A stretch of 64,000 nucleotides of DNA from assembly GCA_005888075.1 (NCBI GenBank), contig VBKD01000174.1, forward strand, positions 2,057-66,056. The letters run 5' to 3'. The notes under the pieces are model-generated. The model was not told where the DNA came from. It ran no database searches and worked only from the letters and a program-made list of their open reading frames with translations. Shown here piece by piece: positions 1,886 to 14,631 of the stretch (position 1 is the first letter of the stretch; each line of letters opens with the position of its first letter). The position numbers were made by a program, and so were the translations under genes. This stretch comes from Chloroflexota bacterium. GTDB taxonomy: Bacteria > Chloroflexota > Dormibacteria > Dormibacterales > Dormibacteraceae.

Positions 1886-3682
1886 ATGATGCATGCAGCC
1901 CGTAGGCTCGTCCCGGCCATTGCTGCGCTGGCTGTCGCAGGACAGGCATTTGCGTTTGGAGTGGCGCACGCCGCCACCACGGCCTCGTCGCTGCACGCCG
2001 CGTATCACGGCACTTTCGCACCGTCGTCCATATCCGGGACTCCAACCGACGTCCCGACGAGCAGCAACGAGATTCCAGCCCAATCGCCCAACTCGAAAAC
2101 AATTCGGCATACCTACGCGGCCGGCACGCCAACGGTACAGGCGCTCAGCGTCTCGTCCGGGCAAGCCAACGGCTTCGGCGGCTTCCAGGGCATCACACAC
2201 AAGGAGCAGCGTCTCGCCGGCACCGGTGACTACTCCAACACCCAATTCAGCCTGGAGCCGCCCGACCAGGGTCTCTGCGTGGGGAATGGCTTCTTGGTCG
2301 AAACCGTGAACAACGCTGTGCGCGTCTTTGACACTTCGGGCAGCCCGGCCACCGAGCCGATCGCTCTGAGCCAGTTCTTCGGATTCAAGCCGGAGGTCGT
2401 GAGACCAAATGGTCCATTTGGACCGTTCATCAGCGACCCCAAGTGCTACTTCGATGTCGCTACATCGCGTTGGTTTCTGACTGAGCTTGGGATTGGCCAG
2501 GTCCCCGCCACGGGCAATTTCGACGGGACGTCGTTTGAGGCTGTCGCTGTCTCGACCTCCTCTGACCCGTCGGCGGACTGGAACATTTACACCTTTGACA
2601 CCACCGACTCTGCGCACCCAGGTTGCGGCGGAGGATGCTTTGGCGACCAGCCCCTTATCGGCGCCGACGCGTACGGCTTCTACGTTTCGACGAACGAGTA
2701 CTCGATCAAACCGTTCGGCACGTACTACAACGGCGCGCAGGTGTACGCGATGTCGAAGCAGGGCCTCGAAGGCGCCGGCAAGAACGGTGTCAACCTGGTA
2801 CACATCGACTCGGGTCCTTACACCCAGAGCGCGTATGGCGCCCCCTCGTTCAACCTCCAGCCTGCGACGGTGCCAGGCACCACATACGACACCTCCAACG
2901 GTGGCACGCAGTACTTCGTGAGCAGCCTCGACCTCGGCGCCGGCCCGGCGCTGGGCACCCGGGCCACGCACGTCGGGCTGTGGGCGCTGACCAACACTAT
3001 TTCGCTCAACAGCAAGAGCCCCAGCCTGACTCTCTCTTTCACCGCGGTTGCCAGTGAGACCTACACGCAGCCGCCGAACATGACTCAGAAGAAGGGCCCG
3101 CTCTGGCTGGGCGCGCAACTCAACGATCCAGAGTCGCTCGTGGCATCGAATGACGACCGCATGAACCAGGTCGTGTACGCCAACGGTCACCTGTGGTCCG
3201 CCACGAACTCGGCGGTCAAGCAGCAGAACGGGCCGACTACGACTGGCATCGCGTGGTTCGAGATCGCACCGTCGGCGACTCCGAACTCGGTATCCGGGCA
3301 GATGACCAACCAGGGTTACCTTGCCGCCTCCGGTCAAAACACGGCCTTCCCGTCGATCGGAGTGACCGACGCGGGCAGGGCGGTCATGACCTTCGCCCTC
3401 GTGGGGCCAGACTTTTACCCGAGCGCTGCATATGCAACACAGGGAGCCGATGGCAGCTTCAACACGATCTATGTGGCCGGCGCGGGCCGGTTCCCGGAGG
3501 ACGGTTTCACCGGCTACAAGGAGTTTGGTGGGACGGTGGCTCGCTGGGGCGACTACACGGCAGCCGTGGCAGACGGATCCGGGAATGTCTGGATGGCGGC
3601 GGAGTTCATCAATGACCTCTACCCGCCTGCGCGCACCTTCTACGCCAACTGGAGCACCTTCGTCAGCAAGGTCACTCCATAG
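1886..3682 (+). CDS. Secreted protein of unknown function, probable beta-propeller (paralog A)
   Basis: ORF 1844..3682. The preferred start is the ATG at 1886 (MMHAARRLVPAIAALAVAGQAFAFG signal peptide) behind GGGAGG. It has an Asp-box-like SSDPSADW and a C-terminal ARWGDYTAAVADGSGNVWMAAEF. It is a clear paralog of the next gene. Confidence 0.8.
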   Translation: MMHAARRLVPAIAALAVAGQAFAFGVAHAATTASSLHAAYHGTFAPSSISGTPTDVPTSSNEIPAQSPNSKTIRHTYAAGTPTVQALSVSSGQANGFGGFQGITHKEQRLAGTGDYSNTQFSLEPPDQGLCVGNGFLVETVNNAVRVFDTSGSPATEPIALSQFFGFKPEVVRPNGPFGPFISDPKCYFDVATSRWFLTELGIGQVPATGNFDGTSFEAVAVSTSSDPSADWNIYTFDTTDSAHPGCGGGCFGDQPLIGADAYGFYVSTNEYSIKPFGTYYNGAQVYAMSKQGLEGAGKNGVNLVHIDSGPYTQSAYGAPSFNLQPATVPGTTYDTSNGGTQYFVSSLDLGAGPALGTRATHVGLWALTNTISLNSKSPSLTLSFTAVASETYTQPPNMTQKKGPLWLGAQLNDPESLVASNDDRMNQVVYANGHLWSATNSAVKQQNGPTTTGIAWFEIAPSATPNSVSGQMTNQGYLAASGQNTAFPSIGVTDAGRAVMTFALVGPDFYPSAAYATQGADGSFNTIYVAGAGRFPEDGFTGYKEFGGTVARWGDYTAAVADGSGNVWMAAEFINDLYPPARTFYANWSTFVSKVTP

Positions 3683-3692
3683 ATCTATTAAA

Positions 3693-3718
3693 GGGCGGCG
3701 GGCTTGCGCCTGCCGCCC
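3693..3718 (+). terminator. GC-rich hairpin downstream of paralog A (possible intrinsic terminator)
   Basis: GGGCGGCGGGC-TTGC-GCCTGCCGCCC forms an 11-bp stem with one mismatch, 10 nt after the stop codon. There is no clean U-tract. Confidence 0.4.
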
Positions 3719-3831
3719 GCGTTGTGTAGCTGACAAATTCTTATGACTGTTGCGATCGGCGCCAGAGCGCCGTTACGATCGCGGGACACGCTGGGCCGTT
3801 TGTAACAAGGGGGAAACAGAGGGTGGTGGAA

Positions 3832-5673
3832 ATGCGTAAGCGTGTTCTCGCGGCTGCCGCAGCCGCTTCAATAGTCGCCGCGATCGGCACTGCGGTGACC
3901 CTGACCACGGCGGCCGCCAAAACCAGCGGGACCGTGACGTTTTCGTCGCAGCCCGGCACTGCAAAGCTGCTCACGCATTACGTCGTGACCCCGGAAGATC
4001 GCAGCCAGCAGAATTCGGCGTCCGCCAACGCGGCGGCGGCCGCGGGTCGAACATCTCAGGACCCGACAACTGCGACGGCGACCAAGCACGGCTCGAAGAT
4101 CTCGAGATCCGTTTCCTCTGACGCCGGCAATCGCGGCGCTTCCGGTACCGGTGTCGCCGCAGGGACGAGCGGCGCCGGAGCCAGCACGCCGGCACCCAGC
4201 GCCAGCTTCATAGGACAGCAGGCGTCCGCGACGACCTGCTCCTACTTCGGGCAGGGCTGCAACCCGCCCGATATGGCGCTCGGAGCCTCGTCGCAGTTCG
4301 TGCTCCAGGGTGTCAACACGCAATGGCAGATCACGGACACCTCGGGTCACGTCCAGCCAGGATGGCCGGTCGGCGCCCAGGCTTTCTTCGGCGTGCCGAA
4401 CGTGACCAACACCGATGGCAATCCGTGCGATACGGCGCACCTCAGCCAGCCGTTCCTCAGCGACCCAAGGGCTCTCTATGACGCGGGCGACCAGCGGTTC
4501 TGGGCCGCGATGCTGCAGATCGAGAACGGATTTGGAATCGCGCCCGACTGCCCGTTCAAGTCCGTCTACTACGTCGCCGTCAGCCAGACGAGCGACCCCA
4601 CCGGCAACTGGAATGTGTATGAGTTCGAGATGTCTTTGGGCAAGACCTCCGGAGGCCAGCTCGTAGGGGCGGACTACACCCAGCTCGGCTTCGATGGCCA
4701 GGCGGTCTACTTCTCCGCCAACATGTTCACGCAAGACGGCAACTTCTACGCCTGGGCCGAGTTGTTCGAGGCGAACAAGGCGCAGATGGAAAGAGGCAAA
4801 GGTGGTTTCACTGCCGCCGGCTTCTACAACCTGCAGGCAAGCGGTCCGGCCAGCGCCAAGGCGGGGCCCTTCGTCGCCGACACCGTCAACCCGGCGATGA
4901 ACCTGGACGGTAGCGCCAACGGCGCCGAGACGTTTGTCGACACGTTTGACGGACCAGACCCTGTCAATGGCAACCTGTGCGGCCAGACCGGCCGGCACGA
5001 TCCCTGCAGTGGCCTGGCTGTCTGGAGCTTGACCAACCCGACCGGCCACGACAACGGCGGCCCGCTGCCGACCCTCGCGGGCAGCTACGTCGCGACCCAG
5101 CCATACCTGATCAACCCGGCTGCCGATCAGCCGAGCTGCAACCACTGCATCGATGCCAACGACCTGCGCATCCCGGGCACGCCCGTGGTCCGCAATGGGA
5201 ATCTCTATGCGGCATGGGGCACAGCGATCAACAATGGTTCGCAGACGGTCCCAGGAATCGAGTGGGCCCAGATCTCGCTGTCGGGTTCTGGCGTCCAGCA
5301 GGCCTACTACGACCAGTCTGGCGATACAGCGGTTACCTACCCGACACTGCTGCCGGACGATCAGGGGAACGTCTTCATGCTGTTCGAGCGCATGAGCCAC
5401 ACCGTGTTCCCGGAAGCTCGTTATCTCGTCAAGGCAGCCGGCGACGCCAACTTCGGTGGCACGGGAGTGCTGCTCAGGCAAGGCGACTCGTCGTACCGCC
5501 CGCAGCGCTGCGGCATCACCATCCCGGTCTGCCGCTGGGGCGACTATGAGGCCGCTTCTTTCGACGGTCAGGGCCGGATCTGGTTCGCCGGCGAGTATGC
5601 GAATCAGTACGCGGGCCTCGGGCCGCCGGTCTACGGACGAAACTGGGGCACCTGGATCGGAGCGATCGGCTAG
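3832..5673 (+). CDS. Secreted protein of unknown function, probable beta-propeller (paralog B)
   Basis: ORF 3823..5673. The ATG at 3832 gives MRKRVLAAAAAASIVAAIGTAV (signal/anchor), followed by a ~75-aa Ala/Ser/Thr/Gly-rich linker. It has an Asp-box-like TSDPTGNW and CRWGDYEAASFDGQGRIWFAGEY. Confidence 0.8.
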   Translation: MRKRVLAAAAAASIVAAIGTAVTLTTAAAKTSGTVTFSSQPGTAKLLTHYVVTPEDRSQQNSASANAAAAAGRTSQDPTTATATKHGSKISRSVSSDAGNRGASGTGVAAGTSGAGASTPAPSASFIGQQASATTCSYFGQGCNPPDMALGASSQFVLQGVNTQWQITDTSGHVQPGWPVGAQAFFGVPNVTNTDGNPCDTAHLSQPFLSDPRALYDAGDQRFWAAMLQIENGFGIAPDCPFKSVYYVAVSQTSDPTGNWNVYEFEMSLGKTSGGQLVGADYTQLGFDGQAVYFSANMFTQDGNFYAWAELFEANKAQMERGKGGFTAAGFYNLQASGPASAKAGPFVADTVNPAMNLDGSANGAETFVDTFDGPDPVNGNLCGQTGRHDPCSGLAVWSLTNPTGHDNGGPLPTLAGSYVATQPYLINPAADQPSCNHCIDANDLRIPGTPVVRNGNLYAAWGTAINNGSQTVPGIEWAQISLSGSGVQQAYYDQSGDTAVTYPTLLPDDQGNVFMLFERMSHTVFPEARYLVKAAGDANFGGTGVLLRQGDSSYRPQRCGITIPVCRWGDYEAASFDGQGRIWFAGEYANQYAGLGPPVYGRNWGTWIGAIG

Positions 5674-8177: not shown

Positions 8178-8250
8178 GCCCCGCTAGCTCAGTGGATAGA
8201 GCATCTGTCTTCTAAACAGAGGGTCTGAGGTTCGAATCCTCAGCGGGGCA
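8178..8250 (+). tRNA. tRNA-Arg (anticodon TCT)
   Basis: Hand-folded cloverleaf: acceptor GCCCCGC/GCGGGGC, D-arm GCTC-AGTGGATA-GAGC, anticodon arm TCTGT-CTTCTAA-ACAGA, T-arm TGAGG-TTCGAAT-CCTCA, discriminator A. Total 73 nt with no encoded CCA. Confidence 0.9.
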
Positions 8251-9243
8251 CTAGATCCAGCCGCGTCGCCTGAAGAGATAGAGCTGGATCCCGATTGCGA
8301 TCAGCATCGTGACGATGCCGACGGCAAACGTGGCGTAAGGGGCCTCCAGCACCTGCGTCAGGTAGGCGAAGTTCATGCCGTAAAAGCCGGTAAGGAAGCT
8401 CAGCGGCAGGAAAACGCTCGCGATCACGGTCAGCGCCTTGGTGGTCTGGTTCAGCCGGTTGGAAACGGTCGACAGGTAGACGTCCAGCGCGCTCGTCAGG
8501 AGGTCGCGCAGCGAGTCGACAGTCTCGTACTGCCGCACGATGTGGTCGTAGACATCTCGGTAGTACAGGGTCATGTCCTGCTGCTGCAGATGGATGCCGT
8601 GCGTGATGAGGCGCTGGAATACGTCGCGCTGCGCCCCGAGAAACCTACGCAGGTCTGTGACCGTGTGTTTGAGGTGGTAGATGCGTTCCAGCGATTGCTG
8701 CTTGGCGCTCTTGGTGATCTCGTCTTCCAATCCATCCACCTCTTCGTCCAGCTTTTCGAGCACTGGAAATGTGGAGTCGATCAGCGTGTCGATGACGAGG
8801 TATGTGATGAAGGCCGGCTTGGAATGGGTCAGCTCGGGACTCTTCTCGATCCGCTCCTGAAGCTGTTTGAGCTCCGGCGAAGGCTCCTGGTGGACGGTGA
8901 TCAAGTAGTGCGGGCCGACGTAAAGATGGTGCTCGCGCATGCCGATGTCGTCTCCGTCCCAGACCGCCGTGAAGATGACGCTGAAGTTGTAGTCGGGGTA
9001 TTCGTCGATTTTCGGCCGCTGGTTCTGGTGCTGGATGTCCTCGATCGTCAGCGGGTGGAAGTTGAATGTTTGCTCGAGGAGCCTGTAATCGTCCTGGTCG
9101 GGCGCTTCGATGTCCAGCCAGAGACCAGACTTTTCGGCATCGGCAAAGCAGCGCTGGACGTCCTCAGTCTCGGTCGAGGCCGTCTTGCCGGTGATCGTAA
9201 GCAGCGTTCTCAGTGGTTCGAGACTATACGGGGCGCCATTCAA
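8251..9243 (-). CDS. corA: Magnesium/cobalt transporter CorA
   Basis: 330-aa ORF with a C-terminal YGMNF (GMN motif) between two TM helices and a CorA-like cytoplasmic domain. The stop codon directly abuts the 3' end of tRNA-Arg. Confidence 0.9.
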   Translation of the reverse strand: MNGAPYSLEPLRTLLTITGKTASTETEDVQRCFADAEKSGLWLDIEAPDQDDYRLLEQTFNFHPLTIEDIQHQNQRPKIDEYPDYNFSVIFTAVWDGDDIGMREHHLYVGPHYLITVHQEPSPELKQLQERIEKSPELTHSKPAFITYLVIDTLIDSTFPVLEKLDEEVDGLEDEITKSAKQQSLERIYHLKHTVTDLRRFLGAQRDVFQRLITHGIHLQQQDMTLYYRDVYDHIVRQYETVDSLRDLLTSALDVYLSTVSNRLNQTTKALTVIASVFLPLSFLTGFYGMNFAYLTQVLEAPYATFAVGIVTMLIAIGIQLYLFRRRGWI

Positions 9244-9310: not shown

Positions 9311-9736
9311 TTAAGCGGCCCGGTGGTCCCCCAGGTAGTGGATGAGACTCTTGTAACTTCTCATCGCCACCCTCAGCCGCTCCGTGTCCTTGTCATCGCC
9401 GGCTTCGCTGTGAATTCGCCGGATCTGTTCGTGCAGCGCGGCCGTCATCTTGTCGACCGCTTCCCCGACCAACGTCTCGGCTTTCTGAACCGCTGCCTTC
9501 GGCTCTTCGATGAAGTCGCCCTGGATGGCATCGAAGCGCTGGATGTAGATCGACATCTCAGGCCAAGGGTCGACGGCACCCATCGACTCGGACGTGCGGG
9601 GGCGTGATTGCTCCATCACCTCCGGGTTCGTGCGAGCCGAGTTGGCGGGCATCGGTTCCGCCGGCCGCATCGTGCGCTGGCTCGTGCGCGCCTCGCCGGC
9701 ATCGTCGCGATCTATGTCAGTCCTGTCTTTCATCAC
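9311..9736 (-). CDS. Hypothetical protein (paralog of the upstream gene)
   Basis: 141-aa ORF. It shares the block FIEEPKAAVQKAETLVGEAV...RVAMRSYKSLIHYL with 9733..10215. The two genes overlap by 4 nt (ATGA). Confidence 0.6.
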   Translation of the reverse strand: MMKDRTDIDRDDAGEARTSQRTMRPAEPMPANSARTNPEVMEQSRPRTSESMGAVDPWPEMSIYIQRFDAIQGDFIEEPKAAVQKAETLVGEAVDKMTAALHEQIRRIHSEAGDDKDTERLRVAMRSYKSLIHYLGDHRAA

Positions 9737-10215
9737 GCAACCTCCCGGCTCGGGCTCTTGTCGGACTCGCGTGCCGACTCTCCGACCGCATCTATGAACA
9801 TTGCCTTGTAGTGGAGCATCGCTTTACGCATCCCCTCGGTTCCTTGTTCGCCTTCCTGTGCGCGGGCTGCCTCGCGCGCGCGCCGCAAGTCATCCGGGAT
9901 GTGGCGGTCGTCATCGAGCTTCGCTCCACGTTCTTGAAGCAACGCAACTGCCGTCTGATCGGCTTCATGAATGGCGTTGCGCGGTTCCTCGATGAATCTC
10001 GCCTCGATCGCGCGCCATGAGCTGGCATACCGCCGTTTCGACTCATCAGGCAGCGGACGCAGCCGCGTGCGCTGCATCTGCCAGATCCCGATTCCCGCCG
10101 CAATCAGGACGATGACGGCCAATATCAACAGAACGAGTAGGGTCGACTGACTCAATGTGGGCACACCTCCTACTGAGGTAACGGGACCCGGCCCGGCCCT
10201 ACTTACGAATTCCAA
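9733..10215 (-). CDS. Hypothetical membrane-anchored protein
   Basis: 160-aa ORF with one TM segment (LLVLLILAVIVLIAAGIGIW), then W..IEARFIEEPRNAIHEADQTAVALL and RKAMLHYKAMFIDAV. This type of protein is widespread in high-GC Gram-positives (from memory). Confidence 0.6.
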   Translation of the reverse strand: MEFVSRAGPGPVTSVGGVPTLSQSTLLVLLILAVIVLIAAGIGIWQMQRTRLRPLPDESKRRYASSWRAIEARFIEEPRNAIHEADQTAVALLQERGAKLDDDRHIPDDLRRAREAARAQEGEQGTEGMRKAMLHYKAMFIDAVGESARESDKSPSREVA

Positions 10216-10406
10216 TCAGGGTAAAGACATGTCGAGCAACAGCCGGCTCGCGAATCCGAGCTAGCGTCGGGTCTTTTTTGGCGGCGCGGGTCTGGCCTTT
10301 GCCTTGGACTTTGGCACGGGCTTCGACCTGGGCGTCGCGGTCTTGCGCTTGCGCGGAGTAGCCGGAGCAACGACTTTGAAACTGCCCATTCGCGCCTTGC
10401 CCAGGT

Positions 10407-10955
10407 TCAGTAGCCGAGCGCCTGACGCAGCACCTTGAATCCCCCGTCGCGCCGGTCGGTTGTAGTGGCGACCGAATACGTGATCCGATCGAGGATGGCC
10501 AGGACAGCGACCGCGTCTTGCGGATTCTTCAAGATGGCGGGCTCGCAAAGGCCCGCGGCCACGGCCCGCTGGACATACGGTCCTTCCTCTGACCACCGCT
10601 TCATCTCGGTGAGAAGCGCCGGCATGTTTTCCCTCCCGACCTGCTGGAGGGCTATCGCGACTCCTTCTCGGACGCGCCACCGTGGGTCGGAGGCCAGCTC
10701 GCGGAGCCAGGTCATCACCGTGTCAGGCTCCATCAGCGCAACCTTGCCGAGGCCGGCCGTGCCGCAAAGGGCAAGGAATTCGTCCGCGGAGGCCGAAAGC
10801 CGCCACAGGCGGTCGGCGTCCGCCTCCTCGGCGACTGCCGCGACGAGCTCGAGGTTGGCTCTTGGTCCGGGAAGGCCGGAGTGCTTCTTGAGGTAAGGCT
10901 CCCAATCTTTCAGGCGGCTGAGCTCTCGGCGGTACAGCTGCATGCGTTCGCCCAT
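10407..10955 (-). CDS. HEAT-repeat protein (DNA alkylation repair AlkD-like fold), possibly truncated by a frameshift
   Basis: 182-aa ORF with repeated helical pairs (DPRWRVREGVAIALQQV, GPYVQRAVAAGLCE). It ends abruptly at ...LRQALGY. A Lys/Arg/Pro-rich 42-codon ORF follows in another frame (10261..10389). Confidence 0.55.
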   Translation of the reverse strand: MGERMQLYRRELSRLKDWEPYLKKHSGLPGPRANLELVAAVAEEADADRLWRLSASADEFLALCGTAGLGKVALMEPDTVMTWLRELASDPRWRVREGVAIALQQVGRENMPALLTEMKRWSEEGPYVQRAVAAGLCEPAILKNPQDAVAVLAILDRITYSVATTTDRRDGGFKVLRQALGY

Positions 10956-11020
10956 CTCTGGTTCGCGATGCTAAGGGGTCCATGCGCTTGGTGGGACTGA
11001 GCTAATGGACAATCCACACG

Positions 11021-11635
11021 ATGGATAGCGCACGGTCGGCCGCGATCACGCAGGGGGTCCGGCTCGAACTCATCACCGTCGGCTGGATGGTCGTCGAGGC
11101 GGTCATCGCCATCGGCGCAGGCGTCGCGGCCAGGAGTGTCCTGCTGACGGCCTTCGGCTTTGACTCGGTGGTCGAGCTCCTGAGCGGAATCGTTCTTTGG
11201 CGGCGGCTCAGCGCCGAGGCGCACAGCGCTGACATCGCCGGTGTCGTGAAGCTGGAGCGGGCGACCACGCGCATCTCGGCGGTGCTGCTGGTCGTGCTGT
11301 GCGCTTACGTTGTTCTGACCTCGATCGCCGGCCTTGTCCTCGGCCTCAAGCCGGATTCCTCGGTGCTTGGTGTCGGCGTGGCCTCAGTTGCTCTGATCGC
11401 CATGCCGCTCCTCGCGAAGGCCAAAAGCGGCGCCAACCAGGTCATCCAGAGCACGTCGCTGCGAGCCGATATCGCCGAGACCATCAGCTGCGCCTACCTG
11501 GCCGCCATCACGCTGTTCGGTCTTGGCTCCAGCATGCTGCTTGGCTGGTGGTGGGTGCAGTACGTCGCGGCCTTCGCATTGCTCATCTGGCTGGTTCCCG
11601 AGACTCGTGAAGCCCTCGAGGCGAACCATGGCTGA
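11021..11635 (+). CDS. Cation-efflux (CDF)-like membrane protein lacking the cytoplasmic C-terminal domain
   Basis: 204-aa ORF with ~5-6 TM segments. The N-terminal block GWMVVEAVIAIGAGVAARSVLLTAFGFDSVVELLSG resembles CDF TM1-TM2. Confidence 0.55.
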   Translation: MDSARSAAITQGVRLELITVGWMVVEAVIAIGAGVAARSVLLTAFGFDSVVELLSGIVLWRRLSAEAHSADIAGVVKLERATTRISAVLLVVLCAYVVLTSIAGLVLGLKPDSSVLGVGVASVALIAMPLLAKAKSGANQVIQSTSLRADIAETISCAYLAAITLFGLGSSMLLGWWWVQYVAAFALLIWLVPETREALEANHG

Positions 11636-11688
11636 CCACCATCGCGCGGGATAATGAGGCCGACCAAGCGGGGCGGAGGCGAAATTCG

Positions 11689-12978
11689 ATGAGCGACAGG
11701 CGGGATGGAAGCGTGGATCACACCGATGAACGGCGCGTCATGCTGACGCAGCTGCTGCGCAGCCCCGTTCTCAACCCCGCGGGAGTCGAGATCGGGCGGG
11801 TCGAAGACGTCATCGTCAAGCTGGCCGAGGGGGTCTATCCGCCGATCACCGGCCTCAAGGTCCGGGTTGGAGCAGAAGACGTCTTCGTCGGCAAGGACCT
11901 GATCGAGCACCTGCAGCCGGGAGCGGTTCGGCTCAACACCCACACGCTCCAAACGCAGGCGTTCCAGCGGCGACCCGGCGAGGTGCTCCTCGCTGCCGAC
12001 GTCCTCGGGCGCCATCTGGTCGACATGGTGCGAGGGCGGATCGTCCAGGCCAATGACTTGGTTCTAGCACCCACCGATGGCGGCTGGTATCTGGCCGGAA
12101 TCGATCGCAGCCCGCAAGCGCTGCTGCGCCGATGGCTCCCTCGTCGAGCCCGGCCAGACCTTCGACGCCACGCGATCCTTGACTGGAAGGACGTCCAGCC
12201 GTTCGTCGGTCACGTGCCAACCGCCAAGCTGCTGATGCCGCTGCAGCGGTTGCGACGGCTGCACCCGGCGCAGATCGCAGACATAGTGGAAGGCGTCTCG
12301 CATGAGGAGGGCGAGGAGATCATTCAAACGGTGCGCAGCGACGCCGAGCTGACGGCCGACGTGTTCGAGGAGCTCGATGACGAACACAGAGTCGAGTTCC
12401 TCAGGTCGCGGCCGAATGAGGAGGTGGCGAAGGTCCTCGACCGCATGGCGCCAGACGATGCCGCGGACATTCTCGGCGAGCTGAGTCAGGAGCGGCGCAA
12501 GCCCATTTTCGACTTGATGTCGCCAAACCAGCAGCACAAGTTGAGCAAGCTTCTGCAGTATCACCCCAGCACGGCCGGAGGGATGATGAGCCCCGACTAC
12601 GTCTGGGTCGTTCGCGGCTCCACAGTGGAGATGGCGCTCGAAGCGGTCCGCACCGACGACAAGTCACCTCGGCCACTGCTCAGCACCGTCTTCATAACTG
12701 AGCAGGAAGGGCGTTATGTCGGCAGCGTCGCGGTGGTTGATCTTCTTCGTGCGGATCGCCACCAAAAGGTCGAAGAGCTCGAGCTGAGCAACATATCGGT
12801 CCAGGGGAACGCGGACTTTTCCGACGTCGCCCTACTCATGGCCGACTACAACCTCACCGCCCTTGCGGCCACCGACGCCGCCGGCAACATGGTGGGTGCG
12901 ATCTCGTCGGACGACGTCATCGAGGCCCTCGTCCCAGAAGACTGGCGAGCCCGGGTCGAAGCGAGCACCGGGGTATAG
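11689..12978 (+). CDS. Soluble PRC-barrel / MgtE N-terminal domain / CBS-pair protein (MgtE cytoplasmic module without a membrane domain)
   Basis: 429-aa ORF. The N-terminal LNPAGVEIGRVEDVIVKL is PRC-barrel-like. HPAQIADIVE...MAPDDAADILGELSQERR is MgtE_N. Two CBS-like repeats follow (GGMMSPDYVWV..., NMVGAISSDDVIEAL). No hydrophobic TM region is present. Confidence 0.8.
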   Translation: MSDRRDGSVDHTDERRVMLTQLLRSPVLNPAGVEIGRVEDVIVKLAEGVYPPITGLKVRVGAEDVFVGKDLIEHLQPGAVRLNTHTLQTQAFQRRPGEVLLAADVLGRHLVDMVRGRIVQANDLVLAPTDGGWYLAGIDRSPQALLRRWLPRRARPDLRRHAILDWKDVQPFVGHVPTAKLLMPLQRLRRLHPAQIADIVEGVSHEEGEEIIQTVRSDAELTADVFEELDDEHRVEFLRSRPNEEVAKVLDRMAPDDAADILGELSQERRKPIFDLMSPNQQHKLSKLLQYHPSTAGGMMSPDYVWVVRGSTVEMALEAVRTDDKSPRPLLSTVFITEQEGRYVGSVAVVDLLRADRHQKVEELELSNISVQGNADFSDVALLMADYNLTALAATDAAGNMVGAISSDDVIEALVPEDWRARVEASTGV

Positions 12979-12984
12979 CCAACC

Positions 12985-14631
12985 ATGGCTGAGCGCGAGC
13001 CGAATCAGAAGGACTCGCGCTTGAGGCCAGGGTCGGCGATCCTGCCGGATGCCCACGGCGAGGAAATCCAGGGCGCCTTCGGGACCATCCGCCTCAGCGA
13101 CGTCACACCTCGCCGATCCTGGCGGCGCAGGCTGCAGACCCTGGCTGCGATCCTCGGACCCGGACTCATCGTCATGGTCGGCGACAACGATGCCGGGGGA
13201 GTGTCGACGTACGCGCAGGCCGGTCAAGACTTTGGGTATTCGCTCCTCTGGACACTGCTCCTGCTGATTCCCGTCCTGATCGTCAACCAGGAGATGGTGG
13301 TGCGATTGGGCGCCGTGACCGGCGTCGGCTACGCGAGACTCATCAGCGAGCGTTTCGGCCGCTCCTGGGGCTGGTTTTCGGTCGCAGGAATTTTTCTGCT
13401 CAACTTCCTGACCATCAGCACTGAGTTCATGGGAATCAGCCTTGCCGCTGAGTATTTTGGTTTCAGCAAGTACGTCGTCGTGCCCCTGGCGATGCTCGTG
13501 CTGATCGGCATCACCATCAGCGGCAACTTCCGTCGATGGGAGCGCGCAATGTTCGCCTTCCTTTTCGCGAGCCTGCTGGTGATCCCGCTGGCGGTGTTGA
13601 GCCACCCCAACCCAGGGGCGGCCATCAGAGGGTTCGTCATGCCGGGCATACAGGGTGGCCTTACGTCGAACTCGGCGCTGTTGATCATCGCGGTCGTCGG
13701 GACCACGGTTGCTCCCTGGCAGCTCTTCTTTCAGCAGTCCAACGTCATCGACAAGCGCATCACGCCCCGATTCCTCGAATACGAGAAGGCGGACACCGTA
13801 ATCGGCGCGTTTGTGGTCGTGGTCGGTGCAGCCGCAATCATGATGGCGACCGGCGCGGCATTCTCGGGCACACCTGCGATGGGCCATTTCGTGGATGCGC
13901 TGCAAGTGGCCCAGGGACTGAAGGCGTATATCTCTCCTGTCGTCGGCGCCATCTTCGCCCTGCTGCTGCTGGATGCGTCGATCGTTGGCGCGTCGGCGGT
14001 GACGCTGGCGACGTCATATGCGTTCGGCGACATCTTCGGCCTGATGCACTCGCTGCATAGAGGCGTGCGCGAAGCGAAGACTTTCTACGCCACATACACC
14101 GCGATGGTCGCGCTGGCCGCCGCGATTGTGCTCATCCCGCACGCTCCGCTCGGTCTGATCACGACAGCGGTTCAGGCGCTCGCGGGCATCATGCTGCCGA
14201 GCGCCACGGTTTTCGCCGTGATGCTCTGCAACGACCGCGCCGTGCTCGGTCCATGGGTCAACAAGCCCTGGCTCAACGCTGTGGCGGGCATCATCGTGAG
14301 CTCATTGATCGCGCTATCGATGATCCTCGTCGTCTCAACTCTGATTCCAACCATCGACGTGACCCGCCTGCTTCTCGTGCTCTCGGCGTTGACGGTCGCG
14401 GTCTGGATCGTGGGCGGAGCAGGTTTGGTGTACGGCAGCCGGCGCGCTGCACCCGAGCCCGCGATGTCGCGACAGGAGCGGGAGAACTGGCGTATGCCCG
14501 CACTCGCACTTCTCGAGCGACCGAAGGGGACGTTGACCCGCCGAATCACGGTATGGGTGCTGAGCGGCTACGTCGTTGTGGGGGTCATCCTTCTGGCGGT
14601 CAAGTCAGTCGAGATCGCGCTTCATCAGTAG
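12985..14631 (+). CDS. Nramp-family transporter with a non-canonical metal site (Nramp-related, possibly Mg2+-type)
   Basis: 548-aa ORF with ~11-12 TM segments. TM1 reads GPGLIVMVGDNDAGGVSTYAQAGQDFGYSLLW (compare E. coli MntH [25 protein letters not shown]). TM6 reads GTTVAPWQLFFQQS (compare GATVMPHVIYLHS). It starts 6 nt after the MgtE_N/CBS gene. Confidence 0.85.
   Translation: MAEREPNQKDSRLRPGSAILPDAHGEEIQGAFGTIRLSDVTPRRSWRRRLQTLAAILGPGLIVMVGDNDAGGVSTYAQAGQDFGYSLLWTLLLLIPVLIVNQEMVVRLGAVTGVGYARLISERFGRSWGWFSVAGIFLLNFLTISTEFMGISLAAEYFGFSKYVVVPLAMLVLIGITISGNFRRWERAMFAFLFASLLVIPLAVLSHPNPGAAIRGFVMPGIQGGLTSNSALLIIAVVGTTVAPWQLFFQQSNVIDKRITPRFLEYEKADTVIGAFVVVVGAAAIMMATGAAFSGTPAMGHFVDALQVAQGLKAYISPVVGAIFALLLLDASIVGASAVTLATSYAFGDIFGLMHSLHRGVREAKTFYATYTAMVALAAAIVLIPHAPLGLITTAVQALAGIMLPSATVFAVMLCNDRAVLGPWVNKPWLNAVAGIIVSSLIALSMILVVSTLIPTIDVTRLLLVLSALTVAVWIVGGAGLVYGSRRAAPEPAMSRQERENWRMPALALLERPKGTLTRRITVWVLSGYVVVGVILLAVKSVEIALHQ

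Follow-up and report, generated by a model that had tools for sequence, protein, structure and literature searches.

We find that a gene within a 64,000-nucleotide (nt) stretch of a Chloroflexota bacterium genome (GenBank assembly GCA_005888075.1, contig VBKD01000174.1; the whole stretch is called the window here) encodes a stand-alone counterpart of the cytosolic domains of MgtE magnesium channels. It is almost certainly a conserved accessory gene of an operon for an Nramp-related Mg2+ transporter (NRMT), and we refer to its 429-amino-acid (aa) product as the NRMT-associated MgtE-like protein. The gene pair is already known: it was described by Shin, Wakeman, Goodson, Rodionov, Freedman, Senger, and Winkler in 2014 (PLoS Genet 10:e1004429, PMC4072509), and the window holds a further example of it, from an additional phylum (probably Dormibacterota). 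Added here are the PRC repeats at the N terminus of the protein, three states of its C terminus, the ligand residues that it has kept and lost, the partner gene of the structurally solved transporter EleNRMT, and co-occurrence of the two genes measured in both directions. As a whole, an NRMT-operon accessory gene whose product acts as an inhibitory Mg2+ sensor is the best explanation that we can offer, and we lean slightly toward it.

The features of the gene pair are as follows, with the evidence for each in brackets.

11689-12978, + strand: gene for the 429-aa soluble protein (open reading frame (ORF), Pfam, NCBIfam, hydropathy, PDB match, AlphaFold2 (AF2) model, and Foldseek)
11675-11679, + strand: Shine-Dalgarno-like GGAGG (9 nt 5' of the ATG at 11689)
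11737-12204, + strand: tandem PRC-barrel-like beta modules, aa 17-172 (Pfam PRC in relatives, hhalign, and AF2)
12259-12567, + strand: MgtE_N helical domain, aa 191-293 (Pfam E = 5e-22 and alignment to 2yvy)
12586-12933, + strand: CBS pair, aa 300-415 (Pfam and alignment to 2yvy)
12934-12975, + strand: C-terminal tail PEDWRARVEASTGV, aa 416-429 (family motif P-x-x-W-R/K-R/K-R)
12976-12984, + strand: TAG stop (12976-12978) and 6-nt spacer CCAACC (both ORFs in one reading frame)
12985-14631, + strand: gene for the 548-aa NRMT (Pfam Nramp E = 5e-75 and match to 7qia)
13180-13200, + strand: motif GDNDAGG in transmembrane helix 1 (TM1) of the NRMT (alignment to EleNRMT)
13699-13719, + strand: motif GTTVAPW in TM6 of the NRMT (alignment to EleNRMT)

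The 429-aa protein is cytosolic and consists of two PRC-like repeats, an MgtE_N domain, and a CBS pair, without a pore domain. Pfam assigns aa 191-293 to MgtE_N (E = 5e-22) and recognizes two CBS stretches, the last of which ends at aa 415; the MgtE pore domain (PF01769) is not matched in this protein. The NCBIfam model for mgtE (TIGR00400) covers profile positions 27-252 of 450 only, which is the soluble half, and scores 112.6 bits against a cut-off of 232.75. The Kyte-Doolittle 19-residue mean peaks at 1.09 with no window above 1.6, and many such windows occur in the adjoining Nramp protein. By sequence, the best solved relatives are MgtE cytosolic domains, among them that of Thermus thermophilus MgtE (TtMgtE; 2yvy, 6e-26, query aa 188-417). 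The GGAGG 9 nt before the ATG at 11689 supports translation from this codon; in some homologues, the first residue corresponds to Met18. Among the 120 best database relatives (75 to 100% identity), length is mostly 412 to 448 aa, and nearly all have an ...EASTGV-type C terminus. The stop position is thus constant in relatives, so that a sequencing error does not explain the missing pore.

The AF2 model, built on an alignment of 50 diverse relatives (A2), is confident throughout, with a predicted local distance difference test score (pLDDT) of 91.8 and a predicted template-modeling score of 0.85. It supersedes a first run on 29 close homologues (A1), in which pLDDT was below 50 for aa 1-185. 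In Foldseek searches, the C-terminal 240 residues of the model superpose on MgtE cytosolic domains. The target TM-score is 0.75 to 0.85 for isolated cytosolic-domain entries, and the root-mean-square deviation (rmsd) is 2.3 to 4.8 Å over the top 10 matches, with the T. thermophilus MgtE structures at 2.3 to 2.5 Å (E ~1e-18).

The region ahead of MgtE_N is PRC-barrel-like. In the 429-aa protein itself, the Pfam PRC match (PF05239; aa 20-49) is weak and falls short of the cut-off, with 15.6 bits against 21.2 (E = 0.017). PRC was matched at E ≤ 0.01 in 31 of 50 diverse full-length relatives (best E = 4e-12), and several relatives lie well above the cut-off, such as the Eggerthella lenta partner with 42.8 bits (5e-11). 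Profile-profile alignment with hhalign matches aa 17-95 to aa 96-172 (83% probability, E = 9e-6), which indicates two PRC-like repeats, and AF2 models aa 17-172 as beta strands with pLDDT above 90. These N-terminal ~170 residues (aa 18-190) are among the best-conserved stretches of the protein family. Note that the Foldseek list for the whole model is dominated by MgtE and CBS matches, so that it gives no check of the PRC part by fold. The tandem PRC module is also present on some full-length MgtE channels: P0258, P0266, and P0268 are channels of ~600 aa with the order PRC, MgtE_N, CBS, and MgtE pore. MgtE channels with an N-terminal PRC barrel are also the closest kin of the accessory protein. 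Our literature search found no paper that names the PRC barrel together with MgtE. PRC barrels are general protein-interaction modules.

The soluble gene and the transporter gene share one reading frame, with only two codons between the TAG and the ATG of the NRMT at 12985. All five Dormibacterota loci that we compared have the junction 'GTA TAG N6 ATG/GTG' (window, 12976-12987; L001, 7306-7317; L004, 3570-3581; L005, 1745-1756; L006, 5288-5299; relatives carry locus numbers throughout). This in-frame TAG with its 6-nt spacer is probably a sign of tight translational coupling.

Judged from its motifs, the product of 12985-14631 is a member of the NRMT clade, with D..G on TM1 and T..A on TM6. 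Its best PDB relative is EleNRMT (7qia, 1e-57), MntH/DMT structures match at 1e-13 or weaker, and the NCBIfam MntH model gives 97.6 bits, under its cut-off of 430. In TM1 (GDNDAGG; GNDAGG in EleNRMT), the Asp of the classical Nramp D-P-G-N is kept and Gly replaces the Asn. In TM6 (GTTVAPW; GTTIAPW in EleNRMT), Thr replaces the Ala and Ala replaces the Met of classical Nramps. The EleNRMT counterparts of this signature are Asp55, Gly58, and Thr224, and Mg2+ transport is abolished by T224A (PMC8806188). EleNRMT carries Mg2+ and Mn2+ but not Ca2+, and transport occurs without proton coupling (PMC8806188).

The pairing is conserved from both sides. For the soluble protein, we scanned one genome per species with search patterns taken from a third alignment (A3), A2 being too diverse. 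The scan gave more than 583 relatives, and the best 80 loci were examined. These span Dormibacterota, Solirubrobacterales, Acidimicrobiales, Gaiellaceae, Streptosporangiaceae, Mycobacterium, Streptomyces, and others. An Nramp-related gene adjoins the soluble-protein gene in 77 of these best 80 loci: downstream on the same strand in 71, upstream on the same strand in 4, and on the opposite strand in 2. Two of the three exceptions are contig ends; the third, L074, is taken up below. In many mycobacterial and related loci, the stop and start codons overlap by 4 nt, which places the two genes in different frames; in other cases outside Dormibacterota, the genes are 40 to 440 nt apart or on opposite strands. 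For the transporter, gut metagenomes were searched with the EleNRMT sequence, which yielded another 80 loci (L084-L163). A full-length relative of the soluble protein lies just upstream in 77 of them, and in the other three, fewer than 250 nt precede the transporter gene. The linkage is thus conserved across phyla, which argues for a two-polypeptide functional unit.

An earlier note on this DNA, made from the sequence alone, had described a stand-alone soluble MgtE module with an N-terminal PRC-barrel region. Pfam, the PRC matches in relatives, and the hhalign repeat agree with this description. The hydropathy profile and the common end of the 120 homologues likewise agree with its statement that the protein has no hydrophobic region; the protein does not continue into TM helices. 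It had also placed the stop 6 nt before the start of an Nramp-family gene, as the TAG, CCAACC, and ATG at 12985 confirm, and the co-occurrence check that it proposed returned a conserved adjacency in each direction.

Two classes of transporter occur in the 80 loci of the genome scan. The signature is D..G / T..A in 65 loci (class 1) and GNDAGG / GTTITP[YFW] in 15 (L016, L020-L022, L025-L027, L032, L034, L036, L044, L050, L051, L056, and L070). Transporters of this second class are ~440 aa long and ~32% identical to the window NRMT, and in their TM6, Thr stands at the position of the NRMT Ala and the classical Nramp Met. For each soluble protein, the nearest-neighbor soluble protein shares the partner class (57 of 57 and 14 of 14), and both transporter classes occur within Solirubrobacteraceae. 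The soluble proteins thus group by partner class, which indicates that the two genes travel as a module. The mirror-tree correlation of the two proteins (r = 0.42 overall, 0.65 in class 1) is confounded by shared ancestry and is not evidence of contact. All-against-all clustering of neighboring ORFs gave no third conserved gene: no cluster reached beyond 15 of the 80 loci, apart from a giant one that merged the pair with many spurious ORFs and one formed, in 46 loci, by ORFs in alternative frames of the MgtE-like gene. This clustering was spoiled by spurious overlapping ORFs, which arise in GC-rich DNA.

The window NRMT has a C-terminal extension of ~100 to 110 aa (aa 451-548, 14335-14631) that is present in class-1 relatives and absent from EleNRMT. 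It comprises additional hydrophobic segments and a hydrophilic stretch at about aa 485-518. If the usual Nramp topology holds, this stretch would be cytoplasmic, and we speculate that it could be a docking site.

EleNRMT has a partner gene of its own, which goes unmentioned in the paper that reports its structure. At the E. lenta locus (L084, from a human gut metagenome), the partner gene occupies 2524-3918 and stops 4 nt before the EleNRMT start at 3923. Its product has PRC (5e-11), MgtE_N, and a CBS pair. A single predicted C-terminal TM helix replaces the basic tail in 53 of 54 Eggerthellaceae partner ORFs. The tail itself, P-x-x-W-R/K-R/K-R, is common to both partner classes; among 50 relatives, P416 is found in 46, W419 in 37, and R/K420 in 40. 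It sits where MgtE has its acidic plug helix, the connection between sensor and pore. The three forms of the C terminus (fused to an MgtE pore, anchored by one TM helix, or ending in a free tail) fit a protein that would work at the inner face of the membrane. One gut-metagenome contig among L084-L163 has the partner and the NRMT as one ORF, with the TM tail replaced by out-of-frame sequence. Most likely, the single ORF results from a frameshift error rather than from a genuine fusion.

The acidic residues at which MgtE senses Mg2+ are kept in part. D224, D256, and D260 in MgtE_N and D409 in the CBS region align with E59, D91, D95, and D247 of TtMgtE, and these positions are acidic in 47 to 50 of 50 diverse relatives. 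In TtMgtE these residues presumably form the Mg4 and Mg5 sites, which are reported to clamp the N domain on the CBS domain in the closed state (Hattori et al., 2007, 2009). Sites Mg4 to Mg7 are lost when the N domain is absent, according to a paper of 2023. The ATP site is a different matter. TtMgtE contacts ATP through Y170, R187, D188, N203, and F227, and F227A abolishes ATP binding (PMC5529423). The corresponding residues here are T333, V350, D351, L366, and L389, so that only D188 is kept, and the position of L389 is Leu in 46 of 50 relatives. Because these contacts are lost, MgtE-type ATP sensing by the 429-aa protein appears unlikely. The earlier note had suggested a two-polypeptide system with an MgtE-type Mg2+/nucleotide sensor. 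The conserved pairing and the retained acidic residues favor the two-polypeptide system and the Mg2+ part of this suggestion; the nucleotide part is doubtful.

The other claims of that note require more revision. It had called the transporter unrelated and knew of no description of such a pairing. The NRMT clade carries Mg2+ (PMC8806188), however, so the transporter is not functionally unrelated, and a Mg2+ sensor beside a Mg2+ transporter makes sense. The pairing, for its part, is a rediscovery. Shin et al. reported that most NrmT genes adjoin a gene for a stand-alone MgtE cytoplasmic domain, noted an MgtE-like gene split in two in C. acetobutylicum, proposed cytoplasmic feedback regulation or a chaperone role for the partner, and carried out a co-expression test (PMC4072509). 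In a literature search that included the EleNRMT paper, papers on Slc11 evolution, and reviews of Mg2+ transporters, we found no later work on partner function.

We propose that the accessory protein is a Mg2+-sensing subunit that inhibits an uncoupled NRMT at high cytosolic Mg2+. The accessory protein would lie at the cytoplasmic face of the NRMT and would bind Mg2+, as MgtE does, at acidic sites between the N domain and the CBS domain. The compact, Mg2+-bound form would then inhibit the transporter. Negative feedback, which MgtE and CorA have built in and which an uncoupled NRMT would otherwise be without, would thereby be supplied in trans, probably without the kind of ATP sensing known from TtMgtE. 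Contact between the two proteins, binding of Mg2+, and the sign of the regulation are inferred here, and we regard the mechanism as evenly balanced between true and false. The homologous module of MgtE is known to shut the channel when Mg2+ is bound (PMC5529423, PMC11309985). In a more specific and more tentative form, to which we give a little less than an even chance, a detachable gating subunit docks on the cytoplasmic face of the NRMT, perhaps via the W-R-R-R tail or the PRC repeats, and closes the LeuT-fold carrier when cytosolic Mg2+ rises. If this is true, a channel-derived sensor acts in trans on an unrelated transporter fold, and one sensor exists in three evolutionary states: fused to the MgtE pore, tethered by a TM helix (Eggerthella), and soluble (window).

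Several observations weigh against inhibition by a Mg2+ sensor. Of the Mg2+-site residues of MgtE, some are missing: D226 of TtMgtE is replaced by Asn in 45 of 50 family members, and E216 is not conserved. CA_c0685 and CA_c3329 complement a Mg2+-transport mutant without a partner (PMC4072509), and purified EleNRMT transports in liposomes (PMC8806188). NRMTs thus work alone, and the partner is not required for transport. When the A. capsulatum pair was co-expressed in B. subtilis, rescue was unchanged (PMC4072509). Note that this assay scored improved growth at low Mg2+; inhibition would not readily be revealed by it and is not excluded. The A. capsulatum transporter behaved as a Mn2+ importer (PMC4072509), so the sensed ligand may not be Mg2+ in every pair. 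Finally, one locus has the soluble gene alone: in a metagenome-assembled genome (MAG) of Trebonia sp. (L074, 3751-5070), no Nramp gene lies within ~4 kb on either side. The neighbors at this locus encode a DUF211 protein, a 186-aa protein without a Pfam match, a dynamin-family GTPase, and a fragment of an MFS protein.

A further gene precedes the pair in the window and bears on the alternatives.

11021-11635, + strand: 204-aa CDF (Cation_efflux) membrane domain (Pfam 2.4e-6, profile positions 10-186 of 198)

This CDF-like protein is without the usual cytoplasmic C-terminal domain, and its gene lies 53 nt 5' of the MgtE-like gene. The same gene is directly upstream in L001-L003 and L006 (with a 7-nt gap in L001), whereas the Actinomycetota loci lack it. 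It may be the first gene of a three-gene operon, in this lineage only, or may even encode another client of the soluble sensor.

The accessory protein could instead be a positive regulator or an assembly or stability factor that binds the NRMT and activates or stabilizes it at low Mg2+. Conserved adjacency and membrane-proximal variants fit such a role equally well, the direction of regulation is unreadable from sequence, and some NRMT homologues may depend on a partner for stability. Nevertheless, NRMTs complement and transport without the partner and co-expression did not improve rescue (PMC4072509, PMC8806188), and the homologous MgtE module closes its channel on binding Mg2+ (PMC5529423, PMC11309985); we consider an activator or stabilizer unlikely. 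We see even less reason to favor a metal chaperone or buffer, in which case the protein would collect Mg2+ or Mn2+ at the inner vestibule of the transporter and hand it over or buffer it, with no role in gating. Metal could bind at the conserved acidic residues, but these align with low-affinity regulatory sites of MgtE, and some relatives carry the module as the gate of a channel pore to which it is joined. Cytosolic free Mg2+ is in the millimolar range, moreover, and a chaperone would be unneeded. A chaperone is nonetheless the alternative that Shin et al. offered in 2014 (PMC4072509).

Another possibility is that the protein is an independent Mg2+-responsive cytosolic protein, merely co-transcribed with the NRMT and acting on some other target, such as the CDF-like protein, without contact with the NRMT. 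The Dormibacterota CDF membrane domain, directly upstream and without a cytoplasmic domain of its own, would suit such a target. L074 has a soluble gene without an Nramp gene, and PRC barrels are in general interaction modules. However, the Actinomycetota and Eggerthellaceae loci have no CDF-like gene, whereas nearly all loci have an NRMT; start/stop overlaps point to expression in stoichiometric amounts; the soluble proteins have diversified along with the class of their partner; and in Eggerthellaceae the protein is anchored in the membrane. We therefore give little credence to an independent sensor. Read-through of the TAG would yield a single sensor-transporter chain, as in MgtE, and the in-frame TAG with 6 nt is kept in all five Dormibacterota loci. 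These loci are closely related, however, and amount to one evolutionary observation; an ATG/GTG start is kept right after the spacer; other lineages have the 4-nt overlap in another frame, gaps of 40 to 440 nt, or opposite strands; and no known read-through signal is present here. We consider read-through highly improbable. The chance that the gene is an artefact, namely an mgtE gene broken by a frameshift or an assembly error, is close to nil. The protein does resemble only the N-terminal half of MgtE, but no MgtE pore-like sequence lies downstream in any frame, thousands of homologues share the same end, and the C terminus has a conserved tail motif.

A CorA Mg2+/Co2+ channel gene (8251-9243, - strand; TIGR00383, 241 bits) lies 2.4 kb from the NRMT pair. 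The region thus has two Mg2+ uptake systems near each other. The 3' end of the CorA gene coincides with the end of a tRNA gene (8178-8250, + strand), and CorA has no counterpart in the syntenic locus L001. On the - strand, two small ORFs (9311-9736, 141 aa; 9733-10215, 160 aa) stand in tandem with a 4-nt overlap, and neither matches a Pfam family. Both have counterparts in L001, of 146 and 141 aa.

No M-box riboswitch (RF00380) was detected in the window at the gathering score or, in 10200-12200, at E ≤ 1, and a scan of 26 related loci gave none upstream of the pair; other riboswitches were likewise not found in either. Without an M-box before the pair, Mg2+ control here would not come from this riboswitch. 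The only M-box that we found, a strong one (129.5 bits), lies directly 3' of the NRMT gene in a Streptosporangiaceae MAG (L052, 7300-7517, + strand), and no ORF of at least 100 aa follows it on that strand within the available stretch.

NRMTs are a fourth class of bacterial Mg2+ importers. EleNRMT is not proton-coupled, so membrane-potential-driven uptake needs a brake. Such a brake is built into MgtE and CorA but not into NRMTs, and the near-universal partner gene, neglected since 2014, is the obvious candidate for it. If trans gating proves true, the pair would illustrate cleanly how a regulatory module can move between unrelated transporter folds, and EleNRMT with its partner would be a tractable system for Mg2+ sensing. 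For annotation, the window is better described as an NRMT operon with an accessory sensor than as 'magnesium transporter MgtE' and 'MntH'.

The closest precedents are the pairs of Shin et al. Their MgtE-like fragment (e.g., Acp2976 with Acp2977) is likewise stand-alone and immediately upstream of an Nramp-related gene. An M-box lies upstream in a subset of their pairs only, and the window pair is without one. The PRC repeats, the basic tail, and the loss of ATP contacts are noted here and go unmentioned in their paper. TtMgtE (2yvx/2zy9; cytosolic domain, 2yvy; ATP complex, 5x9g) has the fold of the N domain and CBS pair in common with the 429-aa protein. By comparison with TtMgtE, the latter is without the five-TM pore and the acidic plug helix and has ~170 extra PRC-like residues at its N terminus. 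Having no pore, it would have to act on another protein in trans. The PRC-containing MgtE channels (P0258, P0266, and P0268) have the same domain order and ~30% identity over aa 17-417, whereas the pore domain (PF01769) is theirs alone. The window transporter is homologous to EleNRMT (7qia; Ramanadane et al., 2022) and has the same metal-site signature, and both have an upstream PRC/MgtE_N/CBS gene. The Eggerthella partner, however, ends in one TM helix and the window partner in a soluble basic tail. The CBS pairs of CorC/CNNM, ClC, and OpuA/OpuC are weaker Foldseek matches to the AF2 model. In these proteins, a membrane transporter is controlled by a cytosolic CBS pair that responds to a ligand inside the cell. 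There, the CBS domains are fused to the transporter or to an ATPase subunit, whereas in the window they belong to a separate polypeptide encoded beside a LeuT-fold carrier.

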